From contig OY762069.1 in NCBI GenBank assembly GCA_963665095.1, forward strand, positions 5,088,001 through 5,152,000: DNA of 64,000 bases. Reading direction: 5' to 3'. Of this stretch, positions 1 to 51,206 are shown piece by piece (position 1 is the first letter of the stretch; each line of letters starts with the position of its first letter). A program made the position numbers and the translations under genes. A model generated the notes under the pieces. The model had not been told where the DNA came from. It did no database searches and was given only the letters and a program-made list of their open reading frames with translations. Source of the DNA: an uncultured Desulfobacter sp. (GTDB lineage Bacteria; Desulfobacterota; Desulfobacteria; Desulfobacterales; Desulfobacteraceae).

Positions 1-1701
1 GCTGGTACGGCAGTTGGAAATTTAATAAAAACTATTGCGGCGAAACCAGAAGTCAAAGATGGCATTCATCCGGGCCAGCTGTTGAAAAATGCGTCAAGAT
101 TCCTGCTTAAAGGCGGTGATGTCGGTTTTGTCGGGGAGTATGCATATCCATTTGACTATCCGAATCTGCTATTTGTCCGGGCGTTAAAAGTTCTCATTGC
201 CATTTTTGTTTTGTATCTGGGTGTTGCTGCCTGCTATGCCCCACGACATTTGCGCTTTTCGTTTATTCTTCCATCACTGGCATCCCTACTGATTGGAATG
301 GGGTATATTCGGACTGTGGGGCTTCCGTTCCTGGTGGCAGGCCCTGTTCTCCTTTCCGGCATAATGGAGATGTCAGCAACTGCCAGGCAGAGTCTGCCAA
401 AGATGTTTTTAAAAGTCCCTGCGGATTATATCAATGTGGGACTGCTTTCTTTGTTGCTGTTTTTTTTCTGCCTATCCAATTATTTTGTGTTCACAAACAA
501 TTTTGTCGCATTTACCGGTATCATAAGCGGTGAGCCTGGTTTCGGGCGGGCGGATCGCCACAAAAGCAGAGTACCGGAATATGTTTTAGAACATTATCCC
601 GATGAAGAGATGTACAACTCGTACAATATTGGTTCTTTGCTGATCTGGGAGTGGTATGGCAAGAAAAAGGTCTTTATTGACGGCAGATCCGTAACTTACA
701 AAAAGCAGTTTTATGATGACTATAAATATTCTTTTTCCCTGAATTCGTTTGAGAACATGGATATTCGGCATGCCATTCTTGGTATATCTGATGATTTTGA
801 CTGGTTTGAAAATTATTTAAGGCTGAACTGGGATATTGAGGCCTTTGATACCGGAATGCTGCTGCTCAAAAGGCGTGTAAAAGAAGGGTATGATAATTTC
901 TATGGAAATGTACCGCAGTTTATAGGCAATATTGATGATTTCAGGCGGTTACAGCGGGACTCCAAAGTCAGGTTCGGTCGATTTGTAAATATCATGGTGA
1001 AGTATATGCTGATTTTTGGCAGACTTGAGGATGCTTCAAAGCTCTATCATTCTCTTGAACCAATTATTAACGCATTGCCCGACGGCATTAACAAAAAGGT
1101 TCTGCACAATAAAAAACGCCTGATGGATGACGTTCAAGAAGAGTTCGGTTTGCAAAACAGAACGGTTCTGGTCGATCTGTTTAAAGAGATTTTCCTGGAT
1201 GATAAGGATGACCGCAGAGACGCCAAACTGGCCAATGAACAGAGTCCTGTGACGATCCATACGGCGTTTGCCAATGCGCATTTCAAGCTGGGAAACAAAA
1301 AGATGGGCGTTGATCACCTGAGCGTTGCTGCTGATTCCGATAAAAATAATGTGATGCTTCAGGTCCGGATCGGGGATTACTTTTATGAAATGAAGGCCCT
1401 TGGACCGGCCATAAAGCATTATAAAAGAGCTGTGGCTCTTGATCCTAAAAGAGTCCATGAGTACAATAAACTTGGTGCGCTTTACTATCAGAAGGGGGAT
1501 TTGAAACTTGCCCGAAGCAGTTTTGGGCAGGCGATTGAAGCAGATCCCAAAGTCATTGCATCCTATATTAATCTTGCCGCGGTATTAATGTCACAGGGTG
1601 AGTTTCGCAACGCCCTGGAAGTCAACAAAAAAGGGTTGGCAGTTGAACCGGAGAATGCCGATCTGCTGGAGATGAAAAAGGATCTTGAGACTAGACAATA
1701 A
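1..1701 (+). CDS. 5'-truncated polytopic membrane protein, putative GT-C glycosyltransferase (STT3/PglB-like soluble domain) with C-terminal TPR repeats
   Basis: Frame is open from base 1, so the gene starts upstream of the window. Several TM segments, then YNSYNIGSLLIW...VFIDGR, then ~4 TPR repeats. Overlaps the gspK start. Confidence 0.6.
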   Translation, partial: AGTAVGNLIKTIAAKPEVKDGIHPGQLLKNASRFLLKGGDVGFVGEYAYPFDYPNLLFVRALKVLIAIFVLYLGVAACYAPRHLRFSFILPSLASLLIGMGYIRTVGLPFLVAGPVLLSGIMEMSATARQSLPKMFLKVPADYINVGLLSLLLFFFCLSNYFVFTNNFVAFTGIISGEPGFGRADRHKSRVPEYVLEHYPDEEMYNSYNIGSLLIWEWYGKKKVFIDGRSVTYKKQFYDDYKYSFSLNSFENMDIRHAILGISDDFDWFENYLRLNWDIEAFDTGMLLLKRRVKEGYDNFYGNVPQFIGNIDDFRRLQRDSKVRFGRFVNIMVKYMLIFGRLEDASKLYHSLEPIINALPDGINKKVLHNKKRLMDDVQEEFGLQNRTVLVDLFKEIFLDDKDDRRDAKLANEQSPVTIHTAFANAHFKLGNKKMGVDHLSVAADSDKNNVMLQVRIGDYFYEMKALGPAIKHYKRAVALDPKRVHEYNKLGALYYQKGDLKLARSSFGQAIEADPKVIASYINLAAVLMSQGEFRNALEVNKKGLAVEPENADLLEMKKDLETRQ

Positions 1702-2725
1702 AGGCCTTGCCCTGGTATTTGTTCTCTGGGTGCTGGTTTTTCTTTCTGTTGTGGCCGGCAGTTTCAGCTATTCTGCAAGCCGGGCCAGGCGTACTGTTTT
1801 TGCCCAGGGCATCCAGGAAAAGGCCTATTATATCGCTCTTGCAGGATTCAACCGGGCGGTGGCCGCTTACATTCAGTCAAAAAAAGATGAACAACCTGGT
1901 ATATGGCGGATTAATTCCGATATTCCTTCCCAGAAATTCGGGGAGGGTTTTTACCAGGTGTTCATTTCCAATGAAAGCGGTAAAATAAATTTGAATGAAG
2001 CAGAGGCAGATTTGTTCAATATGCTTTTAAGCAAGTCGGATCTGGGTGACCGTGATAAAGCGATGATTGTCAACGCTATTCTTGACTGGCGGGATGAGGA
2101 TGATCTCGTAAGGATTGATAGTGCGGAAAAAGACTATTATTCGGCCCTCCCCAAACCGTATGCGCCTAGGAACGGTGATTTTAAGGCCCCCACGGAGTTG
2201 CTGAAAGTCAGAGGTATCACGGAAGAAGTTTTCAACACGTTTTTTAAAGACAGGATTACGGTTAAAGCAGATGAAAATGACCTGCTTCCGAAAAAATCAT
2301 CAATACAGGAGTACCTTCAGCTTGAGAACAGGGAGACGACCAATGGAATACAGACCTTCCTGACCCTTGAAAAAAGGGATGAGCTTAACCGCGTAGGGAA
2401 ATCGTACGATTATTCGAAAATAAATATCAATGCAGCTTCTCCGGGCATGCTGCTTTCCCTTCCTGGGATGACAGAGGCCCTGGTGAGTCAGGTTATTGAA
2501 TTCAGGAAAGAAAAAGATTTCTCGTCCTTGTCAGAATTTTCAAATATAGTCGGTCCTCAGGTATTTGCAGGGTTACGGCAATACATCTCCCTGGCGTTAA
2601 GCCGGTACTATACCATTTCGTCGGTGGGATGGGTGGCAGGGTCTGATATTATCCAGCGGGTAAGGATGGATATTTGGGTTGATAATCAAAAATATGATGG
2701 GTATAAAGTGGTCCAGCGGTATTAA
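1685..2725 (+). CDS. gspK: Type II secretion minor pseudopilin GspK
   Basis: Prepilin-like N-terminus KG|LALVFVLWVL; ESGKINLN, ILDWRDEDD, ELLKVRG and KININAA..L..LPG (HhH) motifs. Confidence 0.9.
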   Translation: MRLDNKGLALVFVLWVLVFLSVVAGSFSYSASRARRTVFAQGIQEKAYYIALAGFNRAVAAYIQSKKDEQPGIWRINSDIPSQKFGEGFYQVFISNESGKINLNEAEADLFNMLLSKSDLGDRDKAMIVNAILDWRDEDDLVRIDSAEKDYYSALPKPYAPRNGDFKAPTELLKVRGITEEVFNTFFKDRITVKADENDLLPKKSSIQEYLQLENRETTNGIQTFLTLEKRDELNRVGKSYDYSKININAASPGMLLSLPGMTEALVSQVIEFRKEKDFSSLSEFSNIVGPQVFAGLRQYISLALSRYYTISSVGWVAGSDIIQRVRMDIWVDNQKYDGYKVVQRY

Positions 2726-2758
2726 GCGGCTTCGGCGGCAGGAGGGGTATAGGTAAGC

Positions 2759-3895
2759 GTGTTTTCACAAAACAGCATAGGGGTGGATATTCAGCAAGAG
2801 AGGATATCCATCGGGTGGATTCAAAGTTCGATAAACGGGCTTAGTTTATCCGCTTTTGAAACCTGCGAGCATGACAAAGAGAATAAAGAGGGTACTCTTT
2901 TCCATGTTGATGAACTGATAACCAGATTCATTGATAAGCATTCCATTAAAACATTTGACCTGTATATAGGTATATCCGAAAGAAACTGTTTAATAAAATC
3001 CATTGAAGTTCCTTTATCTGTCCGGGATGAGATTGATTCGCTGTTAGGGTATGAAATTGAAAAATATGTTCCCATACCTGCATCAAAAATTATCTTTGAT
3101 TATCGGATTTTAAAGGAAGATAAGTCCAAAGATACGCTTGACATTCTTTTACAGGCATTTAAGAAAGATGACCTTGCTCCGTTTATCGGTCTGAAGGATT
3201 TTATTCCAGGTGGCATCACCGGCATTATGCTGACGGAATCAGCCATTGAAGAGTATGAGTACTTTCGGACTTCAAAACGTAAATTCCAAATCAGAGGGGT
3301 TGACAGCCAGGCGGATGATTATTTTCAGAAATTAAGGCCCCTGGCACTTGGATTTCAAAAGTTTAATCCAGACAGAGGACGGATAAACTTTTTGCCCCAA
3401 AGGTTCAGAAAGCAGCCCTCCCGTCTTCCCCTTTTAATTTTTATTTCTTTTATAGCCTTGAATATTATTGCATTGTTTGCAATGGGAGCCAGCTATCTGA
3501 TTCAGAACAGTGTTCAGAACAGCCAGCTGGATGGACGGCTTTCCCAATTGAAAGAAAAGCTGGTAAAGGTGGAAACACTTGAAAAGAGGGTGGGAAGCCT
3601 TGAAGCAAGGGAGATGGAAGTCAGGGGTATATTCCAAAACCGCCCATCCATGCTGGAAATATTGACTGAGCTGACCCGAATCATGCCCCCGGATACACAT
3701 CTGAAAGAGTTTGATTTTAAAAAAAATACAATATGGATAAAGGGATACTCCAACCAGGCATCCCGCTTAATTAAAATTTTTGAATCTTCGGGGTTGTTTA
3801 CCAACGCTGAATTTGAAACAAAAATTACCATTGAGAAAGATCATGAGGAAACATTTATAATTAAGATGCGTCTTGAGAAACAAAATGAAAGTTAA
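2759..3895 (+). CDS. gspL: T2SS GspL / PilM-PilN-like inner-membrane platform protein
   Basis: Actin-like N-terminal domain (IGVDI..., YEIEKYVP), INFLP, one TM helix, coiled coil and PilN-like domain (LEILTELTRIMP..IKGYS). Confidence 0.75.
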   Translation: MFSQNSIGVDIQQERISIGWIQSSINGLSLSAFETCEHDKENKEGTLFHVDELITRFIDKHSIKTFDLYIGISERNCLIKSIEVPLSVRDEIDSLLGYEIEKYVPIPASKIIFDYRILKEDKSKDTLDILLQAFKKDDLAPFIGLKDFIPGGITGIMLTESAIEEYEYFRTSKRKFQIRGVDSQADDYFQKLRPLALGFQKFNPDRGRINFLPQRFRKQPSRLPLLIFISFIALNIIALFAMGASYLIQNSVQNSQLDGRLSQLKEKLVKVETLEKRVGSLEAREMEVRGIFQNRPSMLEILTELTRIMPPDTHLKEFDFKKNTIWIKGYSNQASRLIKIFESSGLFTNAEFETKITIEKDHEETFIIKMRLEKQNES

Positions 3896-4436
3896 TGCCA
3901 TATTGACACGGGAACGGGTAGTCCTGCTGGTGGCAGGCTCCATCGTTCTGCTGGCCGGCCTTCTATACAGGTTTACCCCTGATATCCGATTTTCTTCCCA
4001 TTCCCAAAAACTCAGGCAGGTTGAGAAATACCAGCACCGGGTAGACGGACTGCCTGTACTGGAAGACAGAAATATTTTTTTAACAGGTCAGGTTGAGCGG
4101 GCAAATAATCTTCTTATTTCTGCAGGGTCATTAAAGATTGCAGGGGCAGAAATTCAGAATATGCTGCGGGAAATGGCGGGGCAGGACAATATTTCTTTTA
4201 AAAGCGTCAAGGCATTGAAGGAAGATGTGAAAACGTACGGCTTTGTGTCCGTCATCCCGGTGGGGCTCGCCTTTAAGGCAAACATCCGCCAGTTGAAAGA
4301 TTTTCTTTATAGAATTGAAACATCATCCAAAATGCTTGCTGTCACGGAATTAAGAATCATTAAGCCCGGAAGAGAGGATACTGAAGAGCTGAACGTAATG
4401 ATAACAGTGCAGGGCTATTTTAATGGCAAAAGCTGA
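3885..4436 (+). CDS. gspM: T2SS GspM / PilO-like protein
   Basis: TRERVVLLV..TM N-terminus; LKDFLYRIETSSKMLAVTELRI ferredoxin-like domain; lies between gspL and gspC. Confidence 0.75.
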   Translation: MKVNAILTRERVVLLVAGSIVLLAGLLYRFTPDIRFSSHSQKLRQVEKYQHRVDGLPVLEDRNIFLTGQVERANNLLISAGSLKIAGAEIQNMLREMAGQDNISFKSVKALKEDVKTYGFVSVIPVGLAFKANIRQLKDFLYRIETSSKMLAVTELRIIKPGREDTEELNVMITVQGYFNGKS

Positions 4437-4453
4437 GTTTAAGAGGGAGTGAA

Positions 4454-5227
4454 ATGATTTCCAAATTTTGGTGGGTTAATTTTCTGCTTGTGATTACACT
4501 GGTAATTATCGTTGCCGGCATAATCATGATCTGGCAGAACAAAATAGTTTTACCAGGCTCTGATGCCCGGAAAACTGAAAAGCAATGGCCCGAAATATCC
4601 TCTTTTGAACCGCCTGTGAAAGCAAAAGATCAATATGATATGATTGCCGCAAAAAATATGTACAACTCCGCAAGAAAGGAACATATTCTCAAATCAGAAC
4701 CTGAAAAAAGACACCAGGACCCCGTAACACCTGCCAAAAAAGAAGAAAAGCCTAAACAGGCCATTGCTCCGGAGCAGGTGGAAATACTGAATAAGAAAGA
4801 TTTGATCCTTTATGGGGTGATCTTAATGGCGGATTATAGATTTGCCTTTGTCAATGATTTGGACAAAGGGGATAAAGGCGCCCAGATAAAGGTCAAAGAA
4901 ACTGACCGTATCGGCGAGTACGCCATTAAGAAAATTTTTCCGGAGTTTATTATTGTCTCCTATCAGGGCACGTCTTACAGAGTGCCGCTTTTTAAAGAAA
5001 AAGAAGGCAAGAGTACTCAGAAAAAGGTTGCAAAAAACAATGGGCCAGCGCCAAAAGAATTTCCGGAAAAAAAAGGGGCGTCTGATGCTTCTCCCAGGAT
5101 TTTTGACACAAAAGCCAAAAATATGCTGGAGCCGGAGCGGACCGCGTCAAGCAGCAATGATGACGAATACGAGTGGGTAACCCTGAACACACCGTTTGGA
5201 AAAAAGAGGATAAAAAGAAAGAAATGA
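4454..5227 (+). CDS. T2SS GspC/GspN-like protein
   Basis: N-terminal TM; NMYNSARK (N.F.P.R-like); LILYGVI...VKETDRIGEYAIKKI HR-like domain; precedes secretin. Confidence 0.6.
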   Translation: MISKFWWVNFLLVITLVIIVAGIIMIWQNKIVLPGSDARKTEKQWPEISSFEPPVKAKDQYDMIAAKNMYNSARKEHILKSEPEKRHQDPVTPAKKEEKPKQAIAPEQVEILNKKDLILYGVILMADYRFAFVNDLDKGDKGAQIKVKETDRIGEYAIKKIFPEFIIVSYQGTSYRVPLFKEKEGKSTQKKVAKNNGPAPKEFPEKKGASDASPRIFDTKAKNMLEPERTASSSNDDEYEWVTLNTPFGKKRIKRKK

Positions 5228-7536
5228 GCAATAACGGAAAGCGTATCTGTTGGGGAATCTGTCTGGCGGCAATGTTTTTGGTGAGCGGCTGCAGCCTGAT
5301 CAGTGAAAAAAGCGTACCCGAAAGCGAGGCGTATGACTCTGCCTTTCAAACGGAAACAATGACACATAAAGCCGGAACTGATGGGGTGCCTGAGCCTTCA
5401 GTGCCTGAAGAACCTGAGGTCAGCAAGGCGACGGATGAAAAAAAGTTTGTTACAGATAAGCAGATTGAAGCCAGGCTTTATCCCGGGACCCAACCCGGAC
5501 AGGCCGGGCAGAAGACAGTTACGAAGATTCAGAGGCCGGTGCGCCTGAATCAATCCCGGACGGACGGTAACACCAGTCCCGGAAATATTATTCTAAATTT
5601 CGACGAAGCAGACCTTAATGAGGTGATTCGTGCAATTGCGGAGATCCTTAAGCTGAATTATGTTATTGAAACACAGATAGCCGGGAATGTGACCGTCCAT
5701 ACCGCAGGCGGGTTGAATCCGGAGGAGGTTTTTTCCGTATTTTTCCAGCTCCTGGAAGCCAACGGGCTTACAGCGGTTAAAGCTGAAGGGCTTTACCGGA
5801 TTGTCAGGATGGAAGGTGCGTCCAGGCTTCCCATGAATATTCATCTGCGCTCCGATATGTCAGACGTTTCTGCTGGGGAACGGATTATTATTCAGATTAT
5901 CTCCCTGGAACATATTGATGTCCAGGAAATGGTTAAAATCATTGAACCGGTTATGTCAGAGCAGGGAACCATTATCTCCCATGCCAACTCAAACACCTTG
6001 CTGCTTATTGACAAAGGCATCATCGTTTTAAAGGCGTTGAACCTGGTTAAAGTTTTTGATGTCGATACCTTTAAATTGAAAAATCATCGAATCTACCAGG
6101 TCAAATTTACAGACGTGGAAGAGACGGTGTCGCTGATAGAAAGTCTTCGTCAGGCATACGGGGAAACAGACAAAAAACTTTCCCTGATCCCCATTAAAAA
6201 GTTAAATGCCTTTATCGGGGTGAGCCCAGAACCGGCCGCTCTGAAGTGGGTCGCAGACATTCTTGGACAGGTGGATGTCCCAGGATATGACGCTTCCCCG
6301 AAAATCTATGTGTATAAAGTCCAGAACGGGACCTGCGATGAGTTAAGTTCAATTCTGACCAGTGTGTTTTCCAATGCCGCAGCCTCTGCCACCAGCGAGA
6401 AATCATCCAAAAGTGAAAGCGCTAAAATTCAGAACACCAAAAAAGATCAGCCGGATACTGAAACCATCAACCGGTTGCTTAAAGGGGGGAGTTCTAAAAC
6501 CGCAGCGGCGGATGCGTCCGGCTCCGGTACTACAGCAAAGGGGCTGCCTGGGCCCGAAGGCTCAACCGGAAGCGAATCAGCCCCGGCAATGTTGGTAACG
6601 CGCCCGGGTGCTTCAGGAGATACAGCCGGAGCTGATACTTTGAAGGGCACCATTAAAATCACCACAGATACAGTTCGAAACGCTCTGATAGTCGAGGCCT
6701 ATCCATCTGATTATCAGGTTGTGACAAAAATACTTGAGCAGCTAGACGTTCTACCCAGGCAGGTACTGATTGAGGTCACCATTGCCGATATTACATTGAC
6801 GGATACAAACGAACTGGGCATTGACTGGACCAAATATCTTTCATCCCAGGGAATGGGAGGAGATGTTTCCGGCACTATCGGCTCAAGCGGTCTGAATTTC
6901 ACAATCGGCCTGACCGATAAATGGCAGGCAGCCTTATCTGCCATGGCCAGTGAAAACAGAGTCAATATTTTGTCTACGCCGGTAATACTTGCTACGGACA
7001 ACATAGAGGCAAGTATTGATGTCGCCGAGGAAATTCCTGTGGTAAGCACTTCGTATACAACGGTCACAGACGGAAACAATGTCGTGACCAATACCGTACA
7101 ATATCGGGAGACAGGTATTCTGCTGACAGTAACGCCCCATATCAACGACGAGGGCTTTGTGACAATGGAGATCAGCCAGGAGGTGAGTGAAACAGGCGAC
7201 CCGGTGGAAGCCGGCGGAGAAACGTATCAGTCCTTCAGTTCCCGAAATATTGATACCACATTTACAGTCAGCCATCAGCAGACCATTATGATTGGTGGTC
7301 TTATAAGGCAATCCGATACAGGCAACTCCTCCGGGCTGCCCTTTTTATATAAAATTCCGGGATTGAAATGGCTCTTTGGGAGTGATTCGGTTACAACGGC
7401 AAAAACAGAGCTTGCCGTCTTTATCACTCCGTATGTCATCTATTCAATGGAGGATGTTGCCGAAATAACCAGGGAGTTCCGCCAGAGAACCAATAAGGCC
7501 AGAGGAGAGAATAGTTTGAAGGGCACTTCAAACTGA
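5224..7536 (+). CDS. gspD: T2SS secretin GspD, predicted lipoprotein
   Basis: LNFDEADLNEVI N0 domain; LDVLPRQVLIEVTI, ILSTP..DNIEA, GILLTVTPHIN and GLPFLYKIP secretin motifs; lipobox FLVSG-C. ATG 5224 overlaps the upstream stop. Confidence 0.93.
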   Translation: MSNNGKRICWGICLAAMFLVSGCSLISEKSVPESEAYDSAFQTETMTHKAGTDGVPEPSVPEEPEVSKATDEKKFVTDKQIEARLYPGTQPGQAGQKTVTKIQRPVRLNQSRTDGNTSPGNIILNFDEADLNEVIRAIAEILKLNYVIETQIAGNVTVHTAGGLNPEEVFSVFFQLLEANGLTAVKAEGLYRIVRMEGASRLPMNIHLRSDMSDVSAGERIIIQIISLEHIDVQEMVKIIEPVMSEQGTIISHANSNTLLLIDKGIIVLKALNLVKVFDVDTFKLKNHRIYQVKFTDVEETVSLIESLRQAYGETDKKLSLIPIKKLNAFIGVSPEPAALKWVADILGQVDVPGYDASPKIYVYKVQNGTCDELSSILTSVFSNAAASATSEKSSKSESAKIQNTKKDQPDTETINRLLKGGSSKTAAADASGSGTTAKGLPGPEGSTGSESAPAMLVTRPGASGDTAGADTLKGTIKITTDTVRNALIVEAYPSDYQVVTKILEQLDVLPRQVLIEVTIADITLTDTNELGIDWTKYLSSQGMGGDVSGTIGSSGLNFTIGLTDKWQAALSAMASENRVNILSTPVILATDNIEASIDVAEEIPVVSTSYTTVTDGNNVVTNTVQYRETGILLTVTPHINDEGFVTMEISQEVSETGDPVEAGGETYQSFSSRNIDTTFTVSHQQTIMIGGLIRQSDTGNSSGLPFLYKIPGLKWLFGSDSVTTAKTELAVFITPYVIYSMEDVAEITREFRQRTNKARGENSLKGTSN

Positions 7537-7644
7537 TTATTGTACATAGATCGTGTACAGGGATGGGAATATGAAAAGGGCCACCACCACTTACAGCCCC
7601 TGAAGGTTAACCAGATCAATACAAAGAATCACATGGTTCAAATC

Positions 7645-8547
7645 ATGAAACAGCTGCTTTTGGCGATGATCATTTTCATCAGCCTGGTTCCCGCGATACC
7701 TGCGCTGGAAAGTAAAAAAGCGGCTGTTTTTATTTCAGATACCATTAAGCCTTACTTTGAGGCGGTTAAGGGCCTTGAAGCATACTTTGAAAACAAAGAG
7801 GTGATGCTGAAAATAGTCGAGCTTAAGGACCAGGACCAGGCAGAGTTTGATGACATAGGCAGGGATTTGCTGGAGAAGGGATATGTGTACTGGGCAGCCA
7901 TTGGGCCAAAGGCCACGGAGATAATATATGCCTGCCGGCTTCCCGATGTTTCAGCCAGAGTCTACTCCATGGTGCTTGACCCCGAGGTTATCTTGGTAAC
8001 AAAACCGGTAGATTTCTGTGGCGTGAGTCTTCAAATTCCCCCTGTTGCCCAGGCAGAAGAAATAGCCGGCCTTTTTTCCCCGCCTGCCAGAGTTGGGATT
8101 ATTTTTGATCCGGCATACAATCAGGCCTTTACCGCGCAGGCTGTTAAGGCCTTTGAGGCCAGAGGCCGTATTCTGGAACTGTTACCGGTGGCGTCCAGGC
8201 GCGAGGTTCCCTATGTTCTTGCCCAGGGAGTAAAAAAAATAAATCTGCTGTGGATGATCCCGGATCAGACGGTAATCAGTGAAAGCATTATCCAGTATAT
8301 CATTAAACAGGCCATGCAACAGGGTATCGGGGTTATCGGGTATAATCGGTATTTTTTGAACCAGGGGGCTGTAGCCGCTTTTGTTATTGATTATGAAAAG
8401 GTAGGGGGGCAGACCGGAGAAATCTTGGAGAAAATAATGGATTACGGCAGCTGCAAATCATCAGACCCCTTGTTTGTTTTAAATGTGAATTCCAGGCTGA
8501 TGAAAATTCTGGGATTGGGAAAAAGTGATTCGAATAGGGAACCATGA
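7645..8547 (+). CDS. Periplasmic ABC-type substrate-binding-like sensory protein (no ABC permease nearby)
   Basis: Signal peptide MKQLLLAMII; RVGIIFDP, LWMIPDQTV and GAVAAFVIDYEKVGGQTG motifs. Start chosen at ATG 7645. Confidence 0.75.
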   Translation: MKQLLLAMIIFISLVPAIPALESKKAAVFISDTIKPYFEAVKGLEAYFENKEVMLKIVELKDQDQAEFDDIGRDLLEKGYVYWAAIGPKATEIIYACRLPDVSARVYSMVLDPEVILVTKPVDFCGVSLQIPPVAQAEEIAGLFSPPARVGIIFDPAYNQAFTAQAVKAFEARGRILELLPVASRREVPYVLAQGVKKINLLWMIPDQTVISESIIQYIIKQAMQQGIGVIGYNRYFLNQGAVAAFVIDYEKVGGQTGEILEKIMDYGSCKSSDPLFVLNVNSRLMKILGLGKSDSNREP

Positions 8548-9974: not shown

Positions 9975-9986
9975 AAAAGGATAACC

Positions 9987-41692: not shown

Positions 41693-41694
41693 TA

Positions 41695-42840
41695 TTACCG
41701 GAACGATTTATAAAGTTTTAAAAAATGAGAAATTACAACTCTATCTGTATACCGGTTGAGTATTTCGCTGTAAAGATTCTCCGGCATTTTTTTATATATG
41801 TCCGGGTGTTTGATGATATTGCAAAGGGCCATGCAGATGGCCTCTGCATCACTGGGTTTGACAAGGATTCCAGTGACATTGTTCCGGATCAGCTGGCTAC
41901 ATCCGGGAACGTTTGTTGTAATAACCAGCCGGCCGACAGCACCTGCTTCAATAAGAATTCTGGGTACGCCTTCTCCATACCGGGTCGGCAGTGCAACAAC
42001 ATCCACCTGCTGAATCAGAGACGGCATGTCATCTACCTGCCCGAGCCATTGAATTTTTTTTGTCACGGCAAGTGACTTGATTTCTGCTTTAGAGTAAGCG
42101 CCTTTGGCCTCAGGGTCAAAAATACCGGCAACCAGCAGATCGCAGGGGAAGCCTTTTGCTTTTGTTTTTTCTACGGCCTGGATCAGGGTATCCAGCCCCT
42201 TGTTTTTCAGCAGACGGGCTGCAAATAATACGCTGAGCCTGTTTGAAGGGGGCTTGGGAGTATATTGGAACCGGCTGGTATCAATGCCGGCTCCGGGAAT
42301 ATGGATCAGTCGTTGCTTTTTTTTCAGGCCGCTTTTTTTAAACTCGGCTTGATCGCCAGTGTTTTCAAAGACAAAGGCACCCTGGTTTCCTTTAGCTGCC
42401 AGTTTATACAAAGAAATAATGAGTTTTCGGATAAGTTTGAAATAAATCTCCTGGCTCGAAAAAACAGCGCCAAGGCCGGTGATGCTTTTAATGGAGGCAA
42501 TACCAAGTTGATTTGCTGCAATGCCTGCGTAAATATTGGGCTTGACGGTAATGCTGTGTACAATGCCCGGTCGTAATCGTTGAAGCGTTTTGTAAATTTG
42601 AAATGCACTTTTAATTTCCTGTACCGGATTGACCCCGCTGCGGGACAGTTGGATATGAATACAGTCAAAGCCCAGGCTCTCCAACTCAGCCTTTAACCCC
42701 GGTGTCACAAAGGCTGCAATTATATATACCCTGTAACCTGCCACCAGTGATGCCATAGCCCTGTTCAGCCAATGGAGCTTGAAATACCAGTCTACATTGA
42801 CAACATACGCCAGTTTGGGATTGTCAGGTTTTTGATCCAT
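41695..42840 (-). CDS. GT4 glycosyltransferase, WbbO/CapM-like
   Basis: LAYVVNVDWYFKLHW, HSITVKPNIY, ITGLG, GAGID, ARLLKNKG, YGEGVPRILIEA. Confidence 0.85.
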   Translation of the reverse strand: MDQKPDNPKLAYVVNVDWYFKLHWLNRAMASLVAGYRVYIIAAFVTPGLKAELESLGFDCIHIQLSRSGVNPVQEIKSAFQIYKTLQRLRPGIVHSITVKPNIYAGIAANQLGIASIKSITGLGAVFSSQEIYFKLIRKLIISLYKLAAKGNQGAFVFENTGDQAEFKKSGLKKKQRLIHIPGAGIDTSRFQYTPKPPSNRLSVLFAARLLKNKGLDTLIQAVEKTKAKGFPCDLLVAGIFDPEAKGAYSKAEIKSLAVTKKIQWLGQVDDMPSLIQQVDVVALPTRYGEGVPRILIEAGAVGRLVITTNVPGCSQLIRNNVTGILVKPSDAEAICMALCNIIKHPDIYKKMPENLYSEILNRYTDRVVISHFLKLYKSFR

Positions 42841-43777
42841 CTTTTGATCCGTAGCGAAGAATTTTTTTTATGGGGTCGGTTTGTCCAAATCTGTTGAAAT
42901 TACCGGTTATCCCGTCCCGAATACCAGTTATAAATAATTTTAACCCGGCTGAGTCAGGCGAATTTTTCAGGATAAAACCGGCCAGGCGAACAAGCTTGAA
43001 AAACGCCAGCCCCAGAAAAGCTGGTCCTGTGCATAGAGGGCTAAGACAAAAAATATTCCGTGCAAGGAAATAGATTTTCCAGGCAGGCATCCGGTTATTC
43101 GGTTCTACATTGTGAAAGAATTTTAACTCCGGTATAAAAACAAGGCGATATCCTGACTTGTGAAGCCAAAGCGTATAAAAAATATCATCGTAGTAGATGA
43201 ACAGGTTCGCGTTGATGGCGTCCCTGGTCTGCTGCAGGACATCAAACCTGATAAAAAAACCTACAAATGAGGCTGCTTCCACAGGAGTGATCGCATTGCC
43301 TATGTCTTTTGGAGTGATGAGCATTTTATTTCGCCCTGAAAGGTATCTGAAAAGGCGACCCGGGGTTGATGGATAACGCTTTATTGGCGTATTCATCAAT
43401 GGAAGAGGATCTCCCGGGGCACGTACATGGCAGGCAACGGCATGGTAATTTTTCAGGTTGAATCGCCTGAACTTTTCAATAAGGTCTTCATCAGGCAATG
43501 CGTCATCATCAAAAAAAACAACCCAGTCAGTTTTTATATGACGGGTAATCCAATGGGTGCCAAAGGAAAACCCCCCCGCACCTCCGATATTTTTAATGTG
43601 AACGGCAGTCAGCCGGGAATCTTTCAGCCCATTCAGGTATTCTGTCGTTCCATCCGTGGAGCCGCAGTTTACCACCACAATACCATGGAAATCCTGGGCA
43701 AACGTTCGGGAGATGGTCGTTTTCAGTTTGTCAAGGCGGTTGTGGGTGACAATCAAGGCCGTTATGTTTTGTCCCAA
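42824..43777 (-). CDS. GT2 galactofuranosyltransferase, WbbN/GlfT1-like
   Basis: ALIVTHNRLDKL, GSTDGT, NIGGAGGF, DWVVFFDDDA, SFVGFF, FIYYDD. Confidence 0.8.
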   Translation of the reverse strand: MGQNITALIVTHNRLDKLKTTISRTFAQDFHGIVVVNCGSTDGTTEYLNGLKDSRLTAVHIKNIGGAGGFSFGTHWITRHIKTDWVVFFDDDALPDEDLIEKFRRFNLKNYHAVACHVRAPGDPLPLMNTPIKRYPSTPGRLFRYLSGRNKMLITPKDIGNAITPVEAASFVGFFIRFDVLQQTRDAINANLFIYYDDIFYTLWLHKSGYRLVFIPELKFFHNVEPNNRMPAWKIYFLARNIFCLSPLCTGPAFLGLAFFKLVRLAGFILKNSPDSAGLKLFITGIRDGITGNFNRFGQTDPIKKILRYGSKDGSKT

Positions 43778-44073: not shown

Positions 44074-46155
44074 TTAATTTTGATCTATGAAACCGATTCC
44101 GGTTAGCAGGAAAGACAGCTCTCTGACATCTGTTGTGCCTTTGTCAAAAAACGAAGGTACGTAAGCCTTATCTGATGTAATTAAAAAAGATGTCCGATGG
44201 CCAAACGCCAAGGTGTCGGGCAGGTCAAAAATTAATTTCTGATAGCCTCTTACAATATTTTTTTTGCTTAGTTTAATTCCATCAATGGATAGTGTTACGG
44301 CATTATGGTAAGAGCGCCACGCTTCAGGTACATATATCTCAACGGCAAATTGTATTTTTCCTTTTTTCTGTTCCGGAACGGCCATTTCCCCGGATAAATG
44401 CCGGCCGACCCAGCCATCATTGAATAATCCGTCAAAAAGAGAGCGCTTTATCTGATCACCATGATAATACATCGGTGCTTTTTGGGGAGGGGCAATGGAT
44501 TCGTTCATATGGATTACCTGGTCCTTAAATGATTTAGGGCGTCTGTCTGTTGTGTAGATACCGTTTTTCTGGACAGAGAAAAACATCTCAACATCATCAA
44601 TGCAAATATCTTCTCCCATATTTTCGATTTGAAGCGTTCCCTGTCTTACCGCAGGTAAATCACTACAGGAAATCAACTGGGATTTTAAAGAGGACATGGT
44701 AATATGTTCTGTCTTGAGTACCGCGTCGTTTTTGTCTTTTATTGTTATTGAAACCGCTCCGTTTTCAGCAGCACCCTGTTCAGGTTTTGCTGTGAATTGA
44801 ACCGTTACACAGATGCTGTTGTTATCCGGTGGCGGCCCGGCTCCCTTGAGGTGAAAAGACTGATTAATACTGCCGGATCTATGAAGCAGCACCTCGAATT
44901 CATTTTCAGCAGTTTTCTTTTTTACATGTTCGCCCTTTATTACGCACCACCCCTTTAAATCTCTTTCAAATGAGCTGTTGGCCAGTAAATTGGCATTTAA
45001 ATCATCCAGTGCCCATAGTGCATAGCCTATGGTTCCCTTGGAGATGAGCGGGGCAGATTTGTCAATGAATTTGGTGAGTTCATCCGATGCTATTTTGGTG
45101 TTTTTTTCAAAACCAATGGTATTGTCTATGAAATTAAACTGATCAATAAATATCTGATTGTCTGTTTTTGTTTTGATGGTATCGATAAGGTATTTCAATC
45201 GGGCAATTGCCGTATCGGCACTTGCAATATCTCCATTATTGGGCGCCCCCCACGCCGGTGTATAGTAAATTGTGGTGATGTCACCCTCACCGTTCAAATC
45301 AAACGTCTTGTCATGGCAGATATATTTTCTGTCATCATTGGACGGGTCGCAGTCCACCCGGACCTCCATGGACAGGCCAGGGAATAATTGCTTTGTTCTG
45401 GAGAATATAGAAAGGAGATACTCGTCCCAGAATTCATAAAATAATGCAACTGCCTTGGAGTCTCGGGAAGGAATGGGGACTTGAGCATGATCTGTAAATT
45501 CCTGGTTATAATAACGGGATATCTCTTCAATAGAATATTTTTTTAAGAATTCATCAAATTTGAGCCTGCCGGCGATTTTCAATCTCAAACTTAAAGGAAT
45601 TCTCATGAGGTCCAGAAGGAAAAAATCTTCCCAGGTGATAAAGCCAAATAAAAAATTATCATGTTCCTGTGAGATCTTGTAAAGCTTTTCAACGTAGCTG
45701 CCCCATGCATCCCATGTATTGCCGTCTGTGTTTATGGAAATAATTCTTTCCATATGGTCGGGAGTGCTTGGGACCTCTCCAATCTCATGGGCATACCCAA
45801 AACGGAAAATGACGTTTAAGCCGTGTTCCCCGGCCATATGCATTAGGGTTTCAAGATGTTGAAAGTATTCTTCTTTGAAAATAACGGGCGCAATGGAATA
45901 TTGAAATCCGGACCAGGGGATAATGACAACTATGGTATTGATTTTATTGTCCTTCAGGCGGGTGAAATCCCTGGTCAGGTTGTCCGTATCAAAATTGCTC
46001 CAGAAAGATGGTGCCCAGTGGCCGCTTGTATAATGTACTGCAGCAATTTTTTCATGGCTGAATACAGCCCCAAAGCAGTTGATTGGTACCAGAAACAGCA
46101 GGCATAACACGATAAAACAGTGCATGGATTTTTTAATCTGCTTTTCTTTGGCCAT
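44074..46155 (-). CDS. Exported glycoside hydrolase-like (clan A TIM barrel) protein with CBM-like C-terminal domains
   Basis: Signal/anchor; DFTRLKDNKINTIVVIIPWSGFQ, FITWED, FIDQFNF, GYALW; LLANSSFE CBM-like. Start at ATG 46155 after GGAG. Confidence 0.55.
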   Translation of the reverse strand: MAKEKQIKKSMHCFIVLCLLFLVPINCFGAVFSHEKIAAVHYTSGHWAPSFWSNFDTDNLTRDFTRLKDNKINTIVVIIPWSGFQYSIAPVIFKEEYFQHLETLMHMAGEHGLNVIFRFGYAHEIGEVPSTPDHMERIISINTDGNTWDAWGSYVEKLYKISQEHDNFLFGFITWEDFFLLDLMRIPLSLRLKIAGRLKFDEFLKKYSIEEISRYYNQEFTDHAQVPIPSRDSKAVALFYEFWDEYLLSIFSRTKQLFPGLSMEVRVDCDPSNDDRKYICHDKTFDLNGEGDITTIYYTPAWGAPNNGDIASADTAIARLKYLIDTIKTKTDNQIFIDQFNFIDNTIGFEKNTKIASDELTKFIDKSAPLISKGTIGYALWALDDLNANLLANSSFERDLKGWCVIKGEHVKKKTAENEFEVLLHRSGSINQSFHLKGAGPPPDNNSICVTVQFTAKPEQGAAENGAVSITIKDKNDAVLKTEHITMSSLKSQLISCSDLPAVRQGTLQIENMGEDICIDDVEMFFSVQKNGIYTTDRRPKSFKDQVIHMNESIAPPQKAPMYYHGDQIKRSLFDGLFNDGWVGRHLSGEMAVPEQKKGKIQFAVEIYVPEAWRSYHNAVTLSIDGIKLSKKNIVRGYQKLIFDLPDTLAFGHRTSFLITSDKAYVPSFFDKGTTDVRELSFLLTGIGFIDQN

Positions 46156-46337
46156 ATTTTCATCTCCATTTTTTAAGAAAGTGTTGTTGCTGTCAATATA
46201 TCTGGAAAAAACCATAAATGTGTTTTGTGGTACTTGAAATTATGATATGCACTTAGCCTGTATGACTGATAGAAATCGAACAACTCTACCCAAAATCCAT
46301 AAGGCTTACAAGCTTAAAATGGGCGTCTTCTAATCTT

Positions 46338-47705
46338 TTGAAATTTATGGGCTATTTTATGAATCTTAAGAAGTTTTATACAGTTGCCAGGATGATTGCC
46401 ATCTGTTGGCTGGTGTTTATCATTGCGTTTTTTTATGGGATTTATATCTATGCAAATCAAATATGGCCCTATCCGATTGTCGATGCAATGCAAAAATTTG
46501 CAGCTGGTGATCCGGAAGAAAAAACCTCCCTGGTGGAAAAATTGGAAAATGACCTGGATATTGTCCCGGCCAGGCACATTGTTGATTGTGAGAAAAAATA
46601 TCCGATTCCTTCCGGTTATAAAGAACTGAAAGGAATTGAGATGAATGCCCGCCGTCAGCTCCCCAGGGTTTTCTTCTCAGATGCAGCCCCCAGAGGATAC
46701 CGTTTGATCTACGGCGTTTTTGATTTTAAAAAATCCCTTCATGGCGCTATTCTTTTCGGGCCTGACGGGAATGTTGAAAATGTCTGGTATACCACTCAGG
46801 AGGATGTTGAGTGGCATCACAGGCCTGACAAAAACTGTTACCCGCATGGGTTCGTCATTGGGCATGATGGTACCATCGTAACCGCATATGATGGAGGAAC
46901 TTCACTGACCAAATATGACTGGTGTGGAAATATTCTCTGGCGGAATAAAGGCGCCTTTCACCATTCAATTTCCTTTGACGCAGATAATGCCATTTGGGTA
47001 TGGGGTAAGGCCGGGGAGGTGGAGAAACCGGACGGAAATCATCTGATAAAGGTTGATTATCAGACAGGCAGGATAATCAAAGAATTTCATATGAACGAGG
47101 TGATAAACGCCAATCCGGACATTGATATTTTCAGTATTATGCAGGAAGACACCCCTGAAGGTTCGAAATGGATATTCGATGCCTGGCATACCAATGACAT
47201 TGACCCTTTACCCGAAGAACTGTCTGGTTATTATCCGCAATTTGACGCCGGAGACCTGTTGATCAGTCTCAGGGCGATTGACCTGATTTGTGTCATTGAT
47301 CAGGATAATTATAAGGTAAAGTGGTGGCGTCAGGGGATGAGCCGAAGGCAGCATGATCCGGATTGGAACACCAAAGGAACCATTACCATATTCAATAACA
47401 ATATGCACCGGGGATTTTCCAATATTTTAGAAGTAAACCCTAAGACGTATGAATCTAACAAGGTCGTTGATGGCGAACGATATCAATTTTATTCCTGGAT
47501 GAGGGGCAAACATCAGTTACTTCCCAATGGGGGCTATCTGATAACCTCAACCCAGCAGGGCAGGGTCTTTGAAATCAACGAAAAAGGTGATATTGTCTTT
47601 GAGTTTGTAAATTTTTTCGGGAAGGACGAAGGCTTTTTGGCTCTGTCGGAGGCTGTTTTTCTCCCGCTGGATTATTTTAAGGAGTTACCTGAATGCACAA
47701 AGTAA
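46338..47705 (+). CDS. Arylsulfotransferase (ASST)-family protein, membrane-anchored
   Basis: N-terminal TM; PHG, FHHS, WHTNDID, LLISLR, QHDP, IFNN, LPNGGYLIT..GRVFEI propeller motifs. Confidence 0.75.
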   Translation: MKFMGYFMNLKKFYTVARMIAICWLVFIIAFFYGIYIYANQIWPYPIVDAMQKFAAGDPEEKTSLVEKLENDLDIVPARHIVDCEKKYPIPSGYKELKGIEMNARRQLPRVFFSDAAPRGYRLIYGVFDFKKSLHGAILFGPDGNVENVWYTTQEDVEWHHRPDKNCYPHGFVIGHDGTIVTAYDGGTSLTKYDWCGNILWRNKGAFHHSISFDADNAIWVWGKAGEVEKPDGNHLIKVDYQTGRIIKEFHMNEVINANPDIDIFSIMQEDTPEGSKWIFDAWHTNDIDPLPEELSGYYPQFDAGDLLISLRAIDLICVIDQDNYKVKWWRQGMSRRQHDPDWNTKGTITIFNNNMHRGFSNILEVNPKTYESNKVVDGERYQFYSWMRGKHQLLPNGGYLITSTQQGRVFEINEKGDIVFEFVNFFGKDEGFLALSEAVFLPLDYFKELPECTK

Positions 47706-47899
47706 TAAGTGTTTTAATAATAATTTTGCTTTTTCCTTTGCCTGTTTATGCTTATGTGGGGCCGGGGCTCGGCTTAGGCGCCCTGGGGGCCGTACTTGGA
47801 GTGATCTTTTCTATATTTTTAGCTATATTTGCTATTTTCTGGTATCCCATTAAACGACTAATCCGGAAAATAAAGGGTGAAAAACAAGCGGAGCGGTGA
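47693..47899 (+). CDS. Small membrane protein (AYVGPG type)
   Basis: Signal-like helix, AYVGPGLG, TM helix, WYPIKR basic tail; overlaps both neighbours. Confidence 0.75.
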   Translation: MHKVISVLIIILLFPLPVYAYVGPGLGLGALGAVLGVIFSIFLAIFAIFWYPIKRLIRKIKGEKQAER

Positions 47900-49374
47900 T
47901 GTCGGATAGTTTGTTTATATATCTTCCGTCCATTGTTGTTTCGGTTATAGCTGTTGTCGAGCTTTTATTTCGGCTCCCCTTTGCCAGTCACGTAAATCAG
48001 GTGCGGAATATCTCTTCTAAAGCTATTCATACCGTAACCAGTTCAAAAGTTTCAGATCGCTGGAAAGAAAAGGTTTTACCTGTTTATTCATTTAAAATTT
48101 TTTGTTCCAGTATCATGTTCGGTATTTACCTGGTTGCGGCTTTTTCTGTTTTCATTTCCATCTATGCCCTGGTGGGGCTTGTTTTTTTTGATACCTTCCA
48201 TGATTCGGTTAAAAGCCTTTACCAATGGGAAATTGAAGGTATTATCTGTATTGTCGGTATCGGATACGCCTGGTTTCGGAAGAACATGGCCAGGCGCGGA
48301 TTAAAAGAATCCAATGCGGATGATTATTCTGCATCTTCCAAGCTTCTTCACCACATGGCCCTTGGCAGTAATGCCATCAGGGAAATCTCCTTTGATATTG
48401 ACTGCATGGTGACCAAGGCTTCCGTTGATGTCGGAACAGATGCGCCGGTATATGTGTCCGGCCTGGCAAGGGCCGGGACAACCATTCTCATGGAATCCCT
48501 TTATAAGACAGGTTTATTTGCCTGTCTGACATACAGGGATATGCCCTTTGTTCTGGCCCCGGGGCTGTGGTCAAAGATTTCAGGACGCCATCGTACCCAA
48601 TCAGAATTAAAGGAACGGGCACATGGGGACAGGCTTCTGGTAAACTATGACAGCCCGGAAGCCTTTGAGGAGGTGTTCTGGAAAACGTTCTCTCCCAAAA
48701 AGTATATCCATGATTCCCACCTTGAAATCTGGAACCGGGATGACAATGAACTTGTGGAGAAATATCGAAGATATGTCGCCAATATCATTCATACAAAGGG
48801 GGATGGCAGCGCCTTAAAAAAGCGTTACCTTGCAAAAAATAACAACAATTTACTCCGCATAAATACAATTGTCTCAGCTTTTCCGGATGCTAAAATCATT
48901 GTGCCCTTCCGTCACCCTGTGGATCATGCTGGTTCTCTTATGGCACAGCATACACGATTTTTGGAAGTACATAAGAGTGACCCATTTGCACGTGCTTATA
49001 TGAATTGGCTGGGGCATTTTGAATTCGGTTCTGAATTCAAACCGTTTAACATGGGGGCGGCCTGTCTGCCCGAGTCAACTGACGTTCTTCTGGATCAGGC
49101 CTACTGGCTGGAATATTGGCGGCAGATTTACCAATATATTATAAAAAAACATACCGGCCAGGTGATCTTTTTTGACTATAATTATTTTTGCCAGTTCCCG
49201 GCCAAAGTCTTTGAGCGGATTGAGGATAAGCTGGGGATAAAAGAGAATAAACTGCTCAGTCTGGCCGGGAGCATCAAGCCTGCAACCTCATACTGCGCTG
49301 CATCAGGAAAAGGCCTCTCTTTCGAAGTTAAGAAAGTCTATCAGATGCTCCGGGAGCTATCTATAACGGATTGA
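47896..49374 (+). CDS. PAPS-dependent sulfotransferase with N-terminal membrane domain
   Basis: 5'-PSB loop SGLARAGTT; RYLAKNN; FPDAKIIVPFRHP 3'-PB motif; three N-terminal TMs. Confidence 0.8.
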   Translation: MMSDSLFIYLPSIVVSVIAVVELLFRLPFASHVNQVRNISSKAIHTVTSSKVSDRWKEKVLPVYSFKIFCSSIMFGIYLVAAFSVFISIYALVGLVFFDTFHDSVKSLYQWEIEGIICIVGIGYAWFRKNMARRGLKESNADDYSASSKLLHHMALGSNAIREISFDIDCMVTKASVDVGTDAPVYVSGLARAGTTILMESLYKTGLFACLTYRDMPFVLAPGLWSKISGRHRTQSELKERAHGDRLLVNYDSPEAFEEVFWKTFSPKKYIHDSHLEIWNRDDNELVEKYRRYVANIIHTKGDGSALKKRYLAKNNNNLLRINTIVSAFPDAKIIVPFRHPVDHAGSLMAQHTRFLEVHKSDPFARAYMNWLGHFEFGSEFKPFNMGAACLPESTDVLLDQAYWLEYWRQIYQYIIKKHTGQVIFFDYNYFCQFPAKVFERIEDKLGIKENKLLSLAGSIKPATSYCAASGKGLSFEVKKVYQMLRELSITD

Positions 49375-49487
49375 CATCCTCTGCCATTTTTAAAACTGCA
49401 GGGTGATAACCGCAACACCGCTACCGGCAGACTTGCTCCTTCGTTGAATTATCCTGCTATCTCGATGGATTCTATGCAAGACCAGTA

Positions 49488-51206
49488 TTAATTTACAGCG
49501 CCTGTAAAATCAGTCCCGTCATCCTTGGCCAGTACCCCTTCCTGAGTGATACTGATATTGACGGTTTCAGCAGTTGGGCTGCCATCCTGATCAATCAGGG
49601 TCACCCTGGCTTTTCCGGTTGTTTGAATTTCGAGGGAACCACGGGTTCTCCAGAGAGAACTATTACGTGAGGCTATTCCTTGAACAGCCCAGAGACCCTG
49701 CAAATCAGAAACCGTGTACGGGGTATTTTGTCTGACCCATATTTTCATTTCACTTGCACCGGGGGAGTCTGTTGTCCATGTTTCAGTGGATACCAATACT
49801 GTTTTATTGGCATTCAGGTTGCCTTGAAATTCCCAGGAATCTCTTCCTGTCATGGTAATTGCGCCATTTTGATCAATGTTGAATTGGCCGGTTACGGTAT
49901 CCTCTTCTCCATCAATTTCTACTAAGGAGGCGACAAAGAACCCATCGGCATTGATAGTTGCTGTTCCACGAATCCACCAGGGGGAATCTGATCCGGATGC
50001 CAGCCCATGAAATGTCCAGGTCCCCTGCAGATCGGAAATTGAGTAAGTATCGGCCTGTTTGACCCACATTTTTATTTCACTTGCCCCGGGATCTCCGGAA
50101 CTCCAGGTGTCTGTACTTGCAATGACGGTTTTTCCCACATCCAGATTCCCCGAGAAAGTATTACCGCCATTCTGGGATACCGTGCCGTAGCTGGAGATTT
50201 GAAGGGCACCCGAAAGAGAATAAGACGCTTCGTTGCTGTCTGTTACATCCGCCTGATAAGATCCGTCTGCCTCGATTTCCAAGGTGGCTCTTTCCCACCA
50301 TGGGCCTCCGGGCGCGGTTGCCAGGCTGTGGGAAGACCATGTCCCGCATAAATCAGAAATTGAATAAGAGGTGCCCTGCTTAAGCCAGACATCCATCTCT
50401 GCCGCCCCGGTATCCTCTGAACTCCAGGTCTGTGTCCCGACAGCGATTGTGGATTGTTCCGTATCTGTTGACTGGCAAACTGCGGTTCCTCCGATTATGG
50501 GCAGATCCTCTGGCTCGCTTTCGGGGTCTGTCACAGCCCGAACAACGACAATATATTGTCCTTTGTTCGGAAAAACGTATTCGCAGGTGTTTTCAGTGGC
50601 GTAATCCTGAACAACCACCCATGGGCTGTTTTCATACTCATTGGTTCCGTGATTTCCACGGTAAAACCATTTAAAATAGATATCATCGCCGTTGCCACTT
50701 GACGCATTAGCTGTATAGGTCACGGCAGTGCCGGAATTCACCGGGCCGTCTGAGTCCGATGACAGTCCGGAGATGTGGACTGCGTTTGTATTGCCGATCG
50801 CTACGACACTGCCAATAATAGGCAGCTCCGCCGGTTCGTTTTCAGGATCGGACACAACCCTGGCAACCACAATATATGTTCCGTCTGAAGGGAACGTGAA
50901 TGTGCAGCTGTTATCCAATGAATAGGGTTGCATCACCACCCATGGTGAATTCTCATAATCTGCTGTGCCATAGTTGGCACAGTAGAAAAATTTGTAGTAG
51001 AGGTCCGCATCGCTTTGGTCTGATCCCTCGACGGAAAAAAGGACAGGCAAATTTGATTCCAATGTCCCTGAAATATTCATGGTAAAGGGAACAATCTGAT
51101 TGTCTGAAGCCTGGCTTGGCCATGGGAACGTCAAAAAAATAAAAGCGAAAAAAAGAACGGTTTTAATATTTTTCAACACTGGAAATTTTGAAACAATTTT
51201 CATCAT
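49488..51206 (-). CDS. Secreted repeat protein: two Ig-like (Y_Y_Y-like) domains plus three beta-barrel-like repeats
   Basis: Signal peptide (SQA|S); 2x YYKF..YGT..YENSPWVV; 3x YS/TISDL.G.W..HGLA...WW.RG. Confidence 0.7.
   Translation of the reverse strand: MMKIVSKFPVLKNIKTVLFFAFIFLTFPWPSQASDNQIVPFTMNISGTLESNLPVLFSVEGSDQSDADLYYKFFYCANYGTADYENSPWVVMQPYSLDNSCTFTFPSDGTYIVVARVVSDPENEPAELPIIGSVVAIGNTNAVHISGLSSDSDGPVNSGTAVTYTANASSGNGDDIYFKWFYRGNHGTNEYENSPWVVVQDYATENTCEYVFPNKGQYIVVVRAVTDPESEPEDLPIIGGTAVCQSTDTEQSTIAVGTQTWSSEDTGAAEMDVWLKQGTSYSISDLCGTWSSHSLATAPGGPWWERATLEIEADGSYQADVTDSNEASYSLSGALQISSYGTVSQNGGNTFSGNLDVGKTVIASTDTWSSGDPGASEIKMWVKQADTYSISDLQGTWTFHGLASGSDSPWWIRGTATINADGFFVASLVEIDGEEDTVTGQFNIDQNGAITMTGRDSWEFQGNLNANKTVLVSTETWTTDSPGASEMKIWVRQNTPYTVSDLQGLWAVQGIASRNSSLWRTRGSLEIQTTGKARVTLIDQDGSPTAETVNISITQEGVLAKDDGTDFTGAVN

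Follow-up and report, generated by a model that had tools for sequence, protein, structure and literature searches.

In this study, we found that a 64,000-nt stretch of the genome of an uncultured Desulfobacter sp. (the window; GenBank assembly GCA_963665095.1, contig OY762069.1, positions 5,088,001 to 5,152,000) contains a probable surface layer (S-layer) island like those of Aeromonas, in which the coat protein family is new and several parts are added. The genes, assigned from open reading frames and family scans, are real and travel together as a conserved island. A type II secretion system (T2SS), a sensing module, a secreted acidic 606-aa protein (the coat protein), a transglutaminase-like gene and wzm/wzt were all found where an earlier reading of the DNA letters alone (the sequence-only reading) had put them, and that reading missed an exported selenoprotein gene (19422-20474) and a gene for a secreted CAP-like protein with its sigma54 motif. 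The best explanation of the whole, to which we assign a probability of about 0.6, is an island for a square-lattice S-layer with a docked enzyme, for which we infer the lattice, the export route, the lipopolysaccharide (LPS) anchor and the reaction of the enzyme. The folds and the tetramer are predictions, and the observations proper are gene content, co-conservation, the shared domain, conserved residues, the promoter motif, codon bias and the selenocysteine/cysteine pair.

With 59 aligned sequences of the 606-aa family as query, the coat protein was matched in 34 of 401 genomes of the class and in 1 of 24 other genomes of the genus, and the distribution of the island is therefore patchy. The enzyme alignment matched 51 of the 401 genomes at E<=1e-20, 39 of these at E<1e-100, and the full enzyme is present in 32 of the 34 coat-positive genomes; in a phylum-wide sample it was found in 14 of 401 genomes. 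The related-locus search by itself returned 2 loci, and 28 loci of 8-80 kb each were read, 17 chosen by coat gene and 11 by enzyme. Each of gspD, the four genes of the sensing module, the CAP-like gene and wzm was found in 19 to 24 of these loci (Table 1), and the gene order gsp, sensor module, CAP, coat, enzyme, selenoprotein, wzm/wzt is repeated across several families. Synteny thus supports the proposal of the sequence-only reading in that the T2SS, the signalling module, the coat gene, the enzyme and wzm/wzt are conserved together. Eight loci are without gspD, and four of them (G057, G164, G020, G190) end before its expected position. The similarity matrices of coat and enzyme correlate with a Spearman coefficient of 0.70 (19 loci; the genes are adjacent and the pairs not independent), above those of coat and gspD (0.20) and of coat and wzm (0.12); the enzyme, too, follows gspD and wzm less closely than it follows the coat. 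Furthermore, 16 of the 28 loci (e.g. L039:18579-19217) have a secreted gene of ~220 aa without Pfam match between the coat and enzyme genes, which is absent from the window and G234.

The 606-aa protein very probably forms an S-layer, as had been proposed from the letters, and this is supported by its codon bias, a predicted four-membered (C4) ring and the hypervariability of its family. In codon bias toward 29 ribosomal-cluster genes, which is a proxy for abundance, the coat gene ranks 1st of 4227 by log-ratio, a measure that also favours AT-rich genes, and 32nd by codon adaptation index; the enzyme ranks 413th and 3474th, respectively. The coat protein has a calculated mass of 60.7 kDa. In its mature form it has an isoelectric point of 4.05 and contains 13% Thr, 12.5% Ala and 10.6% Gly, and its model is nearly all beta, with a predicted local distance difference test (pLDDT) value of 87. 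The family comprises 504 clusters at 50% identity. It had no match in Pfam, and a sequence search against PDB gave nothing below E 0.38. The nearest Atlas clusters carry Slr4 in 12-20% of their members (score 0.95), a weak lead, and the Pfam Slr4 model (PF19526) matched 0 of 59 members at E<=1 and 0 of 59 distant members at E<=0.01. Within this variable family, 200 of 207 aligned sequences retain Gln306, whereas its neighbours keep their commonest residue in 27-47%. The loop around it is variable and flanked by conserved Cys292 and Cys311, and any Gln in it is found in 202 of 208 sequences, versus 13-77% for 32 other windows (216 sequences were given, and those without the region are not counted).

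The C-terminal domain of the coat protein is of the ASRAH type. According to the available part of PMC2739507, this superfamily includes the tetramers TM1070 and ASRT, has tetrads fused to secreted amidases, and is predicted to have a sugar cleft partly formed by the subunit interface, sugar binding itself being a prediction. Coat residues 494-606 match the TM1070 fold (Z 11.3, root-mean-square deviation 3.0, 103 aligned) and ASRT (Z 8.6), which gives the eight-stranded beta-sandwich of the superfamily. The near-invariant Asn ending strand 2 is also present, as Asn522, invariant in the coat, and as Asn511, 615 and 724 in the enzyme, whose repeats have DUF5719/ASRT as Atlas neighbours. Four copies of residues 495-606 were modelled as a head-to-tail ring with a score of 0.94 (best control 0.00), four copies being outside the calibration of the tool, in which 20 of 30 solved pairs and 1 of 23 single chains came up to the score mark; the agreement of contacts is 98% or more and pLDDT 92 or more. 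From this model, the domain is predicted to form a four-membered ring, and we tentatively suggest that the ring may serve as a glycan grip. The likeness to the superfamily therefore includes the fold, the conserved Asn, the tetramer and the tetrads on a secreted enzyme, whereas the available part of PMC2739507 does not report such domains from S-layer proteins, transglutaminase-like enzymes or Desulfobacterota. In this genome the domain was found in the coat and the enzyme only, and in relatives rhodanese and PKD proteins carry it. One related locus (L076:3824-9758) has three more ASRAH-repeat proteins between enzyme and wzm, two of them with rhodanese domains, and five others (L067, L070, L072, L091, L093) have short coat forms of 385-426 aa that are without the first domain and keep the second and the ASRAH-type domain.

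The secreted enzyme matches PF16683 TGase_elicitor (38.5 bits, cut-off 25), and its best PDB match is the GP42 transglutaminase 3tw5 (E 1.3e-18). Cys93 is invariant in 83 of 83 homologs, and His149, Asp121 and Asp208 are invariant as well. In contrast to GP42, in which the catalytic His directly follows the Cys (CH motif; available text of PMC10318531), enzymes of the window type are mostly without this His and have four ASRAH repeats added. The model of the enzyme is confident as one unit (pLDDT 94, predicted template modelling score 0.89). Pairwise BLAST of coat and enzyme did not give a significant match in the shared domain (E 0.065), and profiles were therefore needed to show it: 75 of 83 enzyme homologs match at E<1e-3, compared with 0 of 83 in the reversed control, and hhalign of the coat domain to the four repeats gave 96.5, 93.7, 92.5 and 97.3%, compared with 1.6 and 0.1% for two other regions. 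Thus, the transglutaminase-like partner does share the coat domain, by profiles albeit not by pairwise BLAST. The enzyme likely docks on the coat through its four domain copies, and we lean slightly toward Gln306 as the residue on which it acts. For the cross-linking envisaged by the sequence-only reading, the fixed glutamine and the invariant cysteine are indirect support, but the reaction is unproven and the GP42 catalytic His is not kept; true cross-links in the coat are a possibility to which we give somewhat less than even odds.

Upstream of the coat gene, a sigma54 -24/-12-like motif precedes the CAP-coat operon; the same motif was found on the opposite strand in 2 of 26 loci and in 2.9% of shuffles, and rpoN is present in the genome. 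The sigma54 activator of the sensing module likely turns on the operon. A motif directly before the coat gene, present in 2 of 14 loci, was dropped in favour of the pre-CAP site. The CAP-like protein itself has no Pfam match, and a homolog of it matches PF00188. The coat gene is followed by a terminator-like hairpin, by which transcription running on into the enzyme gene would be reduced.

Several observations weigh against this picture. In fold searches of coat residues 24-491 no solved S-layer was prominent; the top matches were adhesin and pilin immunoglobulin-like (Ig) domains (Z 8-9), and a Haloferax S-layer appeared just at rank 30 with a probability of 0.28. No coat lysine is as fixed as Gln306, the best being Lys293 (165/206) and Lys43 (147/184), and the CH-motif His is kept in 9 of 83 enzyme homologs, with an Asp at that position in the window enzyme. 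The tetramer result may reflect memory of TM1070/ASRT. The sigma54 count of 19 in 26 loci was reached after the motif was relaxed and the span searched for it widened, following first passes of 9/16 and 10/26, and the remaining 7 loci are without the motif. Finally, G084, G191, G386 and G150 have no gspD in the span read, on contigs long enough to hold it.

The adhesin- and pilin-like folds, together with the failure of the Slr4 model on all members tested, would also suit a protein that is secreted in abundance as an adhesin, a fibre or part of a matrix and builds no two-dimensional lattice. We consider this quite improbable in view of the predicted C4 ring, the Slr4-containing Atlas clusters, weak lead as they are, and the position of the coat gene behind a T2SS, as for vapA and slr4 (PMC4413209, PMC4483657, PMC7821379; parts available). 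The enzyme, on the other hand, may hydrolyse rather than cross-link, as a protease, deamidase or amidase with a role in the maturation or remodelling of the coat at Gln306. Its papain-fold family, the loss of the GP42 CH motif, the lack of an invariant lysine acceptor in the coat and the known ASRAH tetrads on amidases (PMC2739507, available part) all agree with this, but the only characterised relative matched in PDB is a transglutaminase, and amine transfer would suit an exposed, fixed Gln just as well; hydrolysis is a serious possibility, albeit a minority one.

The destination of the glycan has also to be considered. The ~26 kb of glycan synthesis genes recognised earlier was borne out, with glycosyl-, methyl- and sulfotransferase genes spanning 23048-49374, and the 1129-aa methyltransferase-GT2-GT4 protein is likely a polymerase with chain cap and ruler. 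The coat could be a glycoprotein, with the Wzm/Wzt chain, or single sugars from the membrane protein with tetratricopeptide repeats (TPRs) at the left edge of the window, moved to its many Thr/Ser residues, as in Geobacillus. The coat contains 19.5% Thr plus Ser, multi-helix membrane proteins with TPRs or DUF6311/DUF6056 occur in several loci, and Wzt_C and the methyltransferase-glycosyltransferase protein resemble WsaE-type systems. However, STT3/PglB (PF02516) has no match in the genome (97% complete), the coat has no D/E-x-N-x-S/T sequon, and the membrane-TPR gene occurs in 4 of 28 loci only. No initiating transferase, ligase-like or PglB gene was matched in the island; PF02397 and PF04932 (Wzy_C family) matches lie elsewhere, and one of the Wzy_C-family genes, WaaL-like, is found among genes read as LPS-core type from their N-termini. 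WecA-like PF00953 genes are present in 4 related loci. In Aeromonas, wzt and wbbB mutants lose the LPS O-antigen (PMC4413209, PMC4483657; parts available). Since an island of Aeromonas-like layout makes LPS O-antigen there, and no PglB or ligase-like gene was matched in this one, we favour an anchor of the LPS type over glycosylation of the S-layer. By this analogy LPS, and not the coat protein, probably carries the glycan, and the coupling of Wzm/Wzt glycan to protein that the sequence-only reading proposed is not supported; a glycoprotein coat, for instance by way of an unrecognised GT-C enzyme, appears unlikely overall. Sulfation, which that reading suggested as possible, is no part of the conserved system.

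The selenoprotein gene is present in 20 of 28 loci, 19 with TGA at the same site and one (G250) with Cys, and selB is present in the genome. The conserved in-frame TGA, the Cys homolog and the selenocysteine (Sec) machinery together identify it as a selenoprotein. Like the UshA-like (seleno)protein NF041198, it has a PCGU motif and a metallophosphoesterase domain, but it scores 169.3 bits against this equivalog, below the cut-off of 275, its product has 350 aa compared with 519 model positions, and the Cys before Sec is often lost. Folding of the hairpin that follows the TGA is weak (z -1.55, with 12 of 200 shuffles equally good), and the hairpin overlaps conserved codons; it was therefore not used as proof. 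The protein might remove phosphate or nucleotide groups, or give redox help to the cysteine-rich coat; both are guesses. In L086 (G250), two tandem UshA-like copies have Cys replacing Sec, and wzm/wzt are inverted.

Table 1. Features of the island in the window (positions of the window; loci, the 28 related loci unless another number is given)
Positions	Strand	Feature	Occurrence and remarks
1..1701	+	839-aa membrane protein with C-terminal TPRs, 3' part	start 818 bases before window; homologs in 4/28 loci; accessory
1685..7536	+	T2SS genes gspK, gspL, gspM, gspC, gspD	family scans; gspD in 20/28 loci
7540..13519	+	periplasmic binding protein, HAMP histidine kinase, sigma54-dependent activator, TonB-dependent receptor	19, 19, 19 and 20 of 28 loci
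13682..13698	+	sigma54 -24/-12-like motif before CAP-coat operon	19/26 loci including window
13703..14812	+	secreted CAP-like protein (369 aa), shorter and more diverged than ~480-aa relatives	24/28 loci
14934..16754	+	predicted S-layer protein: signal peptide, Ig-like beta domains (24-491), fixed Gln306, ASRAH-type C-terminal domain (495-606)	
16843..16869	+	terminator-like hairpin after coat gene	4 sites of this kind in the DNA against 5.0 expected from shuffling, hence weak by itself
16902..19328	+	secreted GP42-related papain-fold enzyme (Cys93), 808 aa, four tandem coat C-terminal domains (378-808)	
19422..20474	+	exported UshA-like metallophosphoesterase selenoprotein	TGA at 19560-19562 in frame
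20497..21931	-	small lipoprotein-like gene and TPR gene	small gene in 11/28 loci at tally threshold
22053..23024	+	Sel1-repeat protein	family scan
23048..27285	+	wzm, methyltransferase, B12 radical SAM enzyme, wzt with Wzt_C domain	wzm in 19/28 loci
27334..30723	+	1129-aa protein: methyltransferase, coiled-coil-like stretch, GT2, GT4	whole form in 6/28 loci
30713..43777	.	variable glycan block: radical SAM, FAD oxidoreductase, GT4 and GT2 genes, secreted CBM9-fn3 protein (38210-41692)	
44074..51206	.	strain-specific edge: 713-aa unknown, arylsulfotransferase, sulfotransferase, 572-aa secreted protein	2, 0, 0 and 1 of 28 loci

The island is not self-contained, as had been claimed, because gspE, F, G and H lie 28-32 kb upstream of the window and the island had no match to any initiating transferase or ligase family. 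After gspH come ~26 kb of glycan genes and then gspI and gspJ; gspE-D of window and upstream DNA together make a complete T2SS adjoining the coat gene (gspD scores 416 bits against the TIGR02517 cut-off of 351). The block that splits the operon (L094:5208 to L095:16163) contains two asparagine-synthase-like genes, an ABC flippase, two sulfotransferases, a carbamoyltransferase, gmd and fcl, and G234 has a different block at the same position. The 839-aa membrane protein has nine hydropathy-predicted helices and matches TPR families only, so that its earlier designation as a GT-C-like enzyme, by a motif only, is not confirmed by any family. By the 28-locus tally, the sulfotransferases (0/28), the CBM9 protein (1/28), the 572-aa protein and the membrane-TPR gene are strain-specific and were rejected as core parts. 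The 713-aa protein (44074-46215) has a weak glycoside-hydrolase likeness (E 0.28), with homologs beside glycan genes in G022 and G341. A repeated domain of ~105 aa in the proteins at 38210-41692 and 49488-51206 is weakly similar to the 'triple tyrosine motif' NF010681 and occurs N- or C-terminally in 24 secreted-looking proteins genome-wide; these two proteins are therefore not island-specific, and the domain is possibly a lineage-specific surface-anchoring or sorting module. The right edge of the island is marked by ordinary metabolic genes of higher GC (~52%) at 51929-63892, for DHFR-like, MntP, indolepyruvate oxidoreductase, PaaK-like ligase, TRAP transporter, CoA transferase-GNAT fusion and LysA-like proteins. 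An Rfam scan gave 0 matches, and a sigma70 scan 8 sites, compared with 11.7 expected.

In the square-lattice S-layer that we favour, the sigma54 activator would switch on the coat operon and the T2SS of the island would export the 606-aa protein, whose C-terminal domains would join in rings of four and grip an LPS-type chain exported by Wzm/Wzt. The enzyme would dock via its own four ASRAH-type copies and act on Gln306, most likely by cross-linking the coat, and the coat protein would build a square lattice. In a broader and rather doubtful speculation, the island would represent an undescribed class of covalently stitched Gram-negative S-layers with their own enzyme, in which ASRAH tetramers are four-fold nodes gripping the O-chain, and any protein with four tandem ASRAH copies (the transglutaminase, or the rhodanese and PKD proteins of relatives) plugs in as a pseudo-tetramer, the domain being a plug-in code for surface enzymes, with assembly under sigma54 control and an exported selenoprotein serving it. 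If the S-layer reading is true, sulfate-reducing Desulfobacterota gain a defined and variable surface coat, bearing on phage defence, biofilms and partner contact, and the ASRAH/DUF5719 domain, bacterial PF16683 enzymes and the UshA-like selenoprotein gain a concrete setting. Cys93 and Gln306 name a testable enzyme-substrate pair for an enzymatically cross-linked S-layer, and the ASRAH docking module may be of use in surface display.

Among known systems, the Geobacillus Wsa-type cluster, which contains an initiating transferase and an oligosaccharyltransferase, differs from the island, where PF02397 and PF04932 matches lie elsewhere and PF02516 has none. The Slr4 S-layer of Pseudoalteromonas tunicata is closer, in that its coat protein has a signal peptide, is encoded immediately after a conserved T2SS cluster and forms a square lattice (PMC7821379, available part), and Slr4 clusters are the nearest named Atlas clusters of our coat protein. 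However, the coat has no Pfam Slr4 match, and the available part of PMC7821379 mentions no enzyme, selenoprotein or glycosylation. No description of the whole combination was found in the literature searched, which omits most subscription journals and supplements. In this literature, the statement of the sequence-only reading that it does not recognise the combination as described holds for the added parts but not for the core layout, which is described in Aeromonas. The island of A. hydrophila AH-1 contains spsE-D, vapA, wzm, wzt and wbbB, and A. salmonicida has the same parts and a tetragonal layer tethered by LPS (PMC4413209, PMC4483657; parts available). As far as these sources go, the A. 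hydrophila O11 and A. salmonicida islands share with ours the T2SS order E-F-G-H-I-J-K-L-M-C-D with the coat gene behind it, and wzm/wzt with a multidomain glycosyltransferase of ~1100 aa beside the coat gene, and A. salmonicida also has a sulfotransferase-like gene. This likeness is one of gene content and layout. Here, too, the T2SS beside the coat gene is separate from a second T2SS (near 427-436 kb), and wzm/wzt and a multidomain glycosyltransferase lie beside the coat gene. Unlike the Aeromonas islands, whose available ORF tables are without them, the Desulfobacter island carries a sensor/sigma54/TonB-receptor module, a CAP-like protein, a GP42-like enzyme with four copies of the coat domain and a selenoprotein between gspD and wzm.

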